The notes: a model not told the origin generated them from the sequence alone. DNA of 62,965 bases, filler included, from Neolecta irregularis DAH-3 (GCA_001929475.1; 11 parts of 11 records of this genome joined end to end with filler, not necessarily neighbours in it), one strand, 5' to 3'. Shown: positions 43,296 through 44,068, numbered from the whole stretch's first letter. Translations and numbers: made by a program.

Positions 43296-44068
43296 CTATA
43301 AGATGATACATTTCCGTCTAGACTTGCCAGCAGCAGGAGGCTCCAAAGCCGCAACAATAGCTTCATCAAAGACGTTCTTTAATCCTTTCTGCGTTAAAGC
43401 CGAACACTAAACAATAAGAACGCGCAAAAGGGCATAAACTACCTCGACGTATTTCACGGCTCCCAATTCTTTGGCCAATTTCTCGCCTTGGAGTTGAGTA
43501 ATAAACTTTTTTTCCTGTCCATTCAAATTTTTCTGAGAAGCATTGTCGTTTCGGAGATCGACTTGCGTTCCGACGATGATACATGGAACCATTGGACAAT
43601 GATGACAAACTTCCAACAACCATTTTTCCCGAACATTTTCAAATGAAGCTGGTGAAATGACGCTGAAGCAGACTAGAAATACGTCTGTTTGGGGATACGA
43701 CAAGGGACGGAGACGATCATAGTCTTCTTGCCCTGATTTTCGTCAACCCTCAGCCCTTTTAAAATAGGATTAAAAAAACCAGCGGTATCAAAGAGGCCGA
43801 GTGTATATGGTTCTTCACCAATCATTACAGTTACTGCATAATTGTCAAAGACCTCGAATGATCAGCGTGGAGAAAGAGGGGTAGGTACAGTTGGAACATA
43901 TTCGCTTGGGAATTTGTTCGTTGTGTAAGATATCAATAGACAAGTCTTATCCAGATCAGTTGCTGCCTACCGAGCAATGCAAGATACCTTTCCTACCGCT
44001 CCATCACCGACAACAACTATCATCAGATCAACAGAAAAGGGGGACGAACCACACTTGATCGTTTGCAT
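43296..44068 (-). CDS. CDC42: Rho-family GTPase Cdc42; 5 introns
   Basis: [69 protein letters not shown] box. Confidence 0.97.

Follow-up and report, generated by a model that had tools for sequence, protein, structure and literature searches.

Introns in a 62,965-base stretch of Neolecta irregularis DAH-3 DNA, assembled from 11 contigs with artificial joins (hereafter, the window), are miniature, and their donors have largely lost the G at position +5. An earlier note on this DNA had claimed as much after splicing conserved genes such as CDC42 by hand, with nearly all introns placed at 30 to 47 nucleotides (nt); we find 39/40 homology-defined introns at 31 to 47 nt and 81/84 introns of a pooled set at 30 to 47 nt. 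The +5 G is the most widely kept donor position after GT itself, pairing with U1 first and with U6 next, and canonical ascomycete introns combine the donor GTRNGY with the branch site CTRAY and the acceptor YAG. Erosion of the +5 G and miniature size are real here and are unusual for a fungus; a change in the splicing machinery is a candidate reading of them. We consider it probable, at roughly 0.7, that these are genuine U2-type GT-AG introns near the lower size limit that are recognised across the intron via several weak cues.

CDC42 contains five introns of 33 to 47 nt

Proteins were aligned to the genome with BLOSUM62 and a flat intron penalty, admitting any GT...AG segment of 20 to 200 nt; the aligner scored neither donor nor branch nor length. 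On the minus strand, the CDC42 coding span (43296..44068) begins with an ATG at 44068 and finishes with a stop codon that ends at 43296, its frame being interrupted by five GT-AG segments. The six exons (19, 29, 57, 73, 290, and 111 nt) encode 192 amino acids (aa). Intron 1 (44049-44017; 33 nt) has the donor GTTCGT and the branch-like sequence TCTGATG; it lies in phase 1, has a length divisible by three (3n), and is free of in-frame stops. Intron 2 (43987-43946; 42 nt) has the donor GTATCT and the branch-like ACTGATC, and intron 3 (43888-43853; 36 nt) has GTACCT and GCTGATC. In the last two introns, the branch-like sequence is not CTRAY: intron 4 (43779-43733; 47 nt) carries GTTTTT and GTTGACG, and intron 5 (43442-43407; 36 nt) carries GTAGTT and TCTTATT.

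All five donors, as listed in the earlier note, were reproduced by this GT/AG-only aligner, which placed the same introns with 5/5 references (5 of 120 listed proteins were used). The spliced product is 188/192 identical (98%) to the environmental protein P0019 over its full length and without a gap. It is also gapless against P0042, and it aligns with a single gap at 82 to 83% identity to three of four further Cdc42 proteins (Candida, Cryptococcus, and Kickxella). P0019 itself has 192 aa, is encoded on four contigs of at most 1257 nt, and is colinear with CDC42 over all five junctions. The pipeline behind it is not known to model introns. Given an unbroken 192-codon frame on contigs of this size, P0019 most likely derives from the spliced mRNA of a close relative. 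The contig encoding P0019 was not among the 80 environmental loci listed in the P0019 scan, which reached at most 86% identity.

The genes on either side of CDC42 on the same contig have consecutive accessions, OLL22208.1 (Vps41) and OLL22209.1 (DNA ligase), and no named Neolecta protein of 100% identity occurs among the best 120 CDC42 matches of 173 to 2000 aa, a search not aimed at shorter partial models. For these two reasons, the public annotation probably lacks a gene model for CDC42. Upstream of CDC42, a 66-nt stretch with the telomere-repeat-like GGGTTAGGGTTAGG is exactly duplicated around a 10-N gap at 44325-44334 (44259-44400), which looks like an unmerged assembly or scaffolding overlap.

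Homology-defined introns have a flat +5 position and a loose branch site

Across five genes (CDC42, UBC4, DNA ligase, VPS41, and GH3), 40 introns were defined by homology (tier 1), excluding two 33-nt VPS41 candidates, a 54-nt GH3 candidate, and a 186-nt GH3 segment. The median length is 36 nt, and the single intron outside 31 to 47 nt measures 63 nt. Termini are GT...AG in 40/40. The aligner admits GT/AG alone, yet its products match references without gaps or in full, an outcome not to be expected from boundaries other than GT-AG.

Around the donor, A occupies −2 in 21/40 introns and G occupies −1 in 24/40, followed by A at +3 (27/40), T or C at +4 (20 and 12 of 40), T at +6 (27/40), and C at +7 (20/40). 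Position +5 is flat (G 12, C 12, T 10, and A 6 of 40) and carries about 0 bits of information. GTRNGY donors (GT[AG]NG[CT]) number 6/40 in tier 1 and 15/84 in the pooled set, and matches to the consensus CAG/GTAAGTAT outside GT average 3.7 of 9, versus 4.8 in the control loci described below. Twenty-nine distinct donor hexamers occur among the 40 introns and 55 among the 84, the commonest being GTACCT (5/40; 6/84 pooled). The prominence of GTACCT, together with a +5 C as frequent as G (12 each), could suggest that the donor code has been shifted rather than eroded, with a U1 5′ end or U6 ACAGA box changed to pair with new donors like GTAYCT. Such a shift seems quite improbable. Hexamers are diverse and +5 is flat, so no single complementary small nuclear RNA (snRNA) sequence would fit, and a fungal survey of 240 species found the U6 ACAGA box unchanged in every one of them; its text also describes the contact of U6 with the donor +5 G (PMC10581693).

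At the other end of the intron, the acceptor is YAG in 31/40 tier 1 and 70/84 pooled introns. Strict CTRAY lies within the last 25 nt of 17/40 introns (shuffled interiors: mean 3.4, maximum 9). Looser motifs in the same interval are commoner: YTRAY in 24/40 (shuffled mean 8.2), CTNAY in 26/40 (9.1), and YTNAY in 39/40 (19.8), in agreement with the earlier description of a branch site loose relative to CTRAY. Expectation-maximisation fitted the branch motif (A/G/T)(C/T)T(A/G)A(C/T)N, of about 5.4 bits, in which the T and the A are near-invariant; the branch points given here are predictions from this motif. Between the predicted branch A and the 3′ end, 5 to 12 nt follow (median, 8), and the donor-to-branch distance is 23 to 36 nt (median, 27), the 63-nt intron excepted. 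The acceptor is the first AG past the putative branch A in 37/40 introns. We conclude that a genuine, though loose, branch module lies upstream of the AG at a short and fixed distance. Intron interiors (A/C/G/T, 21/28/15/36%, versus 29/24/22/26% in exons) are poor in G and rich in T and C, with 15% G versus 21.5% in exons.

By their termini and branch-like element, these GT-AG introns are probably of the major (U2) type; the evidence for their removal from mRNA is indirect and consists of the colinear P0019 and of the RNA-seq support that the genome paper states for its gene models (PMC5309816). The complementarity to U1 and U6 that characterises U2-type donors includes the +5 G, and it is lacking at this position (12/40, about 0 bits). 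Two other classes were considered and rejected. U12-type introns have the donor consensus RTATCCT and the branch consensus TCCTTRAY; the donor matched 1/40 tier 1 and 0/44 ab initio introns, and the branch matched 1/40 and 0/44. For an introner-like or mobile family, the best pairwise normalised score among the 84 introns was 0.21, versus 0.18 to 0.21 in three shuffled sets, and the sole similar pair consists of the two halves of the 63-nt ligase intron. In this small sample, 20/40 introns are 3n, of which 7 lack an in-frame stop; the ab initio set is blind to such introns.

Control loci retain the +5 G, and ab initio introns extend the pattern

As a method control rather than a phylogenetic comparison, the same aligner was run with the P0019 reference on the 80 listed environmental loci. 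Introns were placed in 22 loci, 41 in all; each of the remaining 58 showed no intron or had fewer than 150 aligned residues. Control introns have G at +5 in 32/41 (1.02 bits) and a median length of 62 nt, the count retaining one 21-nt "intron" that is an apparent alignment artefact. Tier 1 differs significantly from the control in both +5 G (Fisher p = 1.8e-5) and length (Mann-Whitney p = 4e-12).

Beyond the five genes, gene finding by codon usage alone drifted into GC-rich low-complexity frames, a failure that reflects the weak coding bias of the window (0.074 nats per codon under a fixed model). Donor-free intron signals alone were also too weak, with 47 real versus 26 shuffled candidates at a score of at least 6. 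An ab initio finder based on dynamic programming combined codon scores with intron length, branch, and acceptor, with the donor term left out. At a prior of −5, it predicted 77 introns, recovering 29/40 verified introns (29/32 predictions in verified genes were correct). At a prior of −3.5, it predicted 110 and recovered 33/40 (33/40 correct). With a donor term added at the prior of −5, it predicted 90 and recovered 37/40 (37/38 correct). Training included the 40 verified introns, which makes these recovery rates optimistic. The earlier tally of about 120 introns is of the right order and plausible in the light of the three totals, while the exact number is not verified by them.

Outside the five genes, the donor-blind finder placed 45 introns with a median length of 37 nt, 42/45 of them at 30 to 47 nt. 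After removal of one 97-nt prediction, 44 were used, and 17/44 have G at +5. In the 84 pooled introns, G occupies +5 in 29 (35%, bootstrap confidence interval [CI] = 25 to 45%), versus a background G of 23%.

Several weak cues carry the splice-site information

In a leave-one-gene-out decoy test, the five pre-mRNAs supplied 2143 GT..AG candidates of 20 to 100 nt, of which 40 were true. Length alone recovered 8/40, and recovery rose to 15/40 with composition added to length, to 20/40 with donor context, and to 23/40 with branch and acceptor. Length, donor, branch, and acceptor together recovered 31/40, and all five cues recovered 29/40; from the latter, recovery fell to 21/40 without the donor, 18/40 without length, and 25/40 without the branch. 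Mean true-minus-decoy log-odds were 3.7 bits for length, 4.0 for donor, 4.2 for branch, 2.6 for composition, and 1.5 for acceptor. Since donor context raises recovery, the donor still carries diffuse information despite the loss of the +5 G; its residual preferences are G at −1 (24/40), A at +3 (27/40), T or C at +4 (32/40), and T at +6 (27/40).

The strongest form of the earlier proposal, that length plus GT/AG is in essence all that defines introns here, is consistent with the narrow length window and its roughly 3.7 bits. Recovery by length alone, at 8/40 among 2143 candidates, shows that length plus GT/AG is far from sufficient, as does the gain to 31/40 with further cues and the losses from 29 to 21 without the donor and to 25 without the branch. 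Moreover, a further AG occurs inside 26/40 introns and a further GT inside 29/40. We accordingly judge definition by length and terminal dinucleotides alone to be very improbable.

A proposal for recognition across the intron

Our preferred reading is that recognition would take place across a near-minimal intron and not via a strong 5′ splice site. The donor is AG/GTA(Y)N(T), without a preference at +5, and a loose YTNAY lies near the AG. The branch/3′ module may act jointly with the narrow spacing between donor and branch, as intron definition under a ruler-like constraint; if so, pairing of +5 to the C of U1, and later to the U6 ACAGA box, would go unused for site choice. High intron density could further reduce the information needed per donor, in line with the published inverse relation of intron number and donor strength.

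Several points weigh against this reading. The ab initio length and branch model narrows lengths and favours branch-like motifs, and the predicted branch distances come from a model that fits its distance prior itself. The sample amounts to 84 introns from 63 kb on only 11 contigs. The +5 G and the exon −1 G do not significantly compensate for each other (p = 0.17 and 0.48), and no trade-off of the +5 G with a strict branch was seen either. The best simple model misses 9/40 true introns, composition does not help (29/40), and for this missed quarter, cues are possibly lacking or the training sets too small. Finally, the comparison with relatives consists of printed mean lengths, one sentence on fungi in general (PMC3033335), and environmental loci.

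A further step would be that 5′ splice-site recognition in Neolecta dispenses with the +5 G contact, the donor being set largely by its distance (about 23 to 31 nt) from the branch/3′ module of a near-minimal intron, with accompanying changes in the U1 small nuclear ribonucleoprotein or commitment complex. We offer this tentatively and lean against it. If it were true, Neolecta would be the shortest-intron, weakest-donor intron-rich fungus known, and the public annotation would systematically miss tiny-exon genes and in-frame introns, as with CDC42 and two Vps41 candidates here.

Four further genes and the security of their intron boundaries

The UBC4-type E2 gene (12248-12928, plus strand) encodes 147 aa and has six introns at 12293-12328 (36 nt), 12374-12418 (45 nt), 12449-12484 (36 nt), 12563-12603 (41 nt), 12710-12748 (39 nt), and 12877-12916 (40 nt). 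All six donors read earlier (GTCATT, GTGCGT, GTACAA, GTACTC, GTGTCT, and GTTTAG) are present. The Pfam UQ_con matches of exons 4, 5, and 6 (positions 39-63, 64-98, and 101-139) follow on from one another over introns 4 and 5; introns 1 to 3 and 6 are based on reading-frame integrity and sequence reading only. The region is GC-rich (the open frame 12394-12735 has 55% GC, versus about 43% for much of the window), and by eye the UBC4 introns are C-rich rather than T-rich. From this region, intron composition seems to track local composition.

The DNA ligase I gene (44603..47231, minus strand) has eight introns, and its 5′ end is cut off by the contig end. The introns lie at 46568-46506 (63 nt), 46457-46427 (31 nt), 46324-46293 (32 nt), 46023-45992 (32 nt), 45905-45873 (33 nt), 45477-45444 (34 nt), 45212-45180 (33 nt), and 44720-44681 (40 nt). 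Seven of the eight had identical boundaries in 10/10 references (10 of 120 listed were used). The intron at 46023-45992 was found with 3/10 references, yet it is present in the public protein, and the spliced product is 777/777 identical to P0122 (OLL22209.1). The 63-nt intron at 46506-46568 is a tandem duplicate of a 31- to 32-nt intron, with near-identical halves that both start with GTA and finish with CCCAG; splicing might take it out whole or as two adjoining introns. The verified 33-nt intron at 45873-45905 is in frame and stop-free and reads through as coding, which is why an unspliced ligase exon query matched the Neolecta protein at only 94%. Read-through of this kind by in-frame stop-free introns is a trap for any exon-level search in the Neolecta genome.

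The VPS41 gene (39702..42904, plus strand) has 12 introns of 33 to 42 nt, as in the public protein: 40048-40084, 40244-40281, 40380-40413, 40576-40614, 40662-40698, 40802-40838, 41164-41196, 41301-41333, 41555-41590, 42009-42050, 42171-42208, and 42555-42587. Support in this order was 6, 6, 7, 3, 6, 7, 6, 7, 6, 7, 7, and 5 of 7 references; these were 7 of 8 matches, with Neolecta's own protein among them and the weakest match, a plant protein, excluded. The spliced product is 922/922 identical to P0242 (OLL22208.1). At 39873-39905 and 42285-42317 (plus strand), two 33-nt in-frame, stop-free GT...AG segments are translated in the public protein. Their removal improves the alignment for all six non-Neolecta references, and the intron model scores them at 4.9 and 2.5 nats, values also seen among verified introns; both segments are probably introns that are retained or were missed in annotation.

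The GH3 beta-glucosidase gene (4459..7290, minus strand), which has Pfam GH3 domains, has nine accepted introns at 7244-7204 (41 nt), 7119-7084 (36 nt), 6905-6867 (39 nt), 6523-6489 (35 nt), 6357-6326 (32 nt), 6150-6117 (34 nt), 6019-5983 (37 nt), 5735-5699 (37 nt), and 5087-5052 (36 nt). Their support, in order, was 5, 10, 10, 10, 9, 9, 5, 10, and 9 of 10 references, the references being 10 long proteins of 150 returned. The 54-nt in-frame candidate (5/10 references; model score, −4.9) was excluded from the 40. The 186-nt "intron" (5/10 references) was also excluded; it falls within an exon of 197 open codons and is more probably an insertion specific to the lineage than an intron.

A few boundaries in these genes are ambiguous: ligase 46023-45992 (3/10), GH3 7244-7204 and 6019-5983 (5/10 each), and Vps41 40576-40614, which competes with an alternative shifted by 4 nt. 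Boundaries mis-set by hand-splicing or by the aligner could in principle scramble a donor logo. Against an artefact of this sort, all or nearly all references agree on most boundaries, products are identical to public proteins, seven GH3 introns are placed with at least 9/10 references, and the control loci give normal +5 G with the same aligner. We attach almost no weight to it.

Composition of the window

The contigs measure, in order, 8761, 13551, 7691, 6118, 10724, 1004, 5509, 1905, 4115, 1324, and 1263 nt. They are separated by 10 identical spacers, each N44-TTAATTAATTAA-N44, at 8762-8861, 22413-22512, 30204-30303, 36422-36521, 47246-47345, 48350-48449, 53959-54058, 55964-56063, 60179-60278, and 61603-61702, and five more 10-N scaffold gaps lie inside contigs. 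Because the contigs were laid end to end, genes on either side of a spacer are not necessarily genomic neighbours. GC-rich stretches (52 to 65% GC; GC3 up to 0.79) at 16215-17291, 20455-22465, 52059-53611, and 60227-62667 contain long open frames, either on both strands or in more than one frame, and they misled codon-based self-training. At least two contain real domains (PIP5K at 16215-17291 and CUE at 20455-21897). An Rfam scan of the 63-kb window at gathering thresholds, and also at E ≤ 0.5, gave 0 matches and hence no snRNA; no tRNA was found in the window either. A protein-atlas search matched bacterial NAPRTase clusters only, which did not inform on taxonomy. For the genome as a whole, the main text of the genome paper, in extract, gives 14.5 Mb, 44% GC, and 5,546 genes, with RNA-seq support for 99.4% of gene models (PMC5309816).

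Comparison with known systems

The pattern might be nothing unusual among intron-rich Taphrinomycotina, or in any genome dense with introns, as the expected extreme of the inverse relation between intron number and donor strength and with no lineage-specific change in machinery. A tendency of intron-rich species towards weaker 5′ sites has been published (Irimia, Penny and Roy 2007, as cited in PMC8476143). Pneumocystis genes, too, carry about 5 introns each (PMC4764891), and Neolecta is described in print as rich in introns: 1211 orthologues hold 4202 intron sites, about 26% of them gained (PMC7940399). Here, density is 4.6 introns per kb of coding sequence in the five verified genes and 2.6 per kb in the ab initio models. 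Nevertheless, we find this explanation unlikely. Printed mean intron lengths in relatives are 78 nt in T. deformans, 61 nt in P. jirovecii, and 81 nt in S. pombe (PMC3648899, in extract), versus medians of 36 to 37 nt here. A 61-species survey, in extract, calls the donor G "very strong" in fungi and gives a shortest mean intron of 56 bp (PMC3033335), which is longer than the Neolecta median of 36 nt. The control loci, through the same aligner, kept the +5 G in 32/41. The contrast in length with related Taphrinomycotina that the earlier note had left to be checked holds for the printed means of 61 to 81 nt.

Neolecta introns resemble canonical ascomycete introns in their GT-AG termini, in a branch-like T and A near the 3′ end, in YAG acceptors (31/40), and in the lack of a long polypyrimidine tract after the branch, with probable intron definition. 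They differ in +5 G (12/40), GTRNGY donors (6/40), and strict CTRAY (17/40). Cryptococcus neoformans, by comparison, has a strong +5 G. The ultra-short introns of ciliates are under selection against stop-less 3n introns; in our small sample, with 20/40 introns 3n, no depletion of this kind is visible. Like Paramecium introns, which are about 25 nt long (PMC5014332, in extract), those of Neolecta vary very little in length, sit close to a physical minimum, and carry only weak signals apart from GT and AG; unlike them, they are some 10 nt longer and have a recognisable branch-like motif. Cryptococcus neoformans (34,885 introns; mean, 63 bp; PMC8476143, in extract) shares many short introns per gene with Neolecta, although its introns are nearly twice as long. 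Like Neolecta, Pneumocystis belongs to the Taphrinomycotina and has a compact genome, and both are reported as intron-dense (PMC7940399), whereas P. jirovecii introns average 61 nt (PMC3648899, in extract).

We found no description of splice signals or intron size among the listed papers on Neolecta, judged by title and abstract, where supplementary tables (PMC5309816, PMC8476143) may give lengths; the words intron, splic, and exon are absent from the main text of the genome paper (PMC5309816). The intron richness of Neolecta is already known and its gene models are public, and its splice grammar appears under-described. An essential GTPase gene, CDC42, appears to be without a gene model here, and one annotated protein probably contains two retained introns. 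Gene finders tuned to GTRNGY and to introns of 50 to 100 nt will mis-model such genomes. Neolecta is a free-living multicellular ascomycete that splices several introns per gene without a +5 preference at 31 to 47 nt, and it offers a natural system for asking how much base pairing the spliceosome needs, how small an intron can be, and how intron density relates to weak donors.

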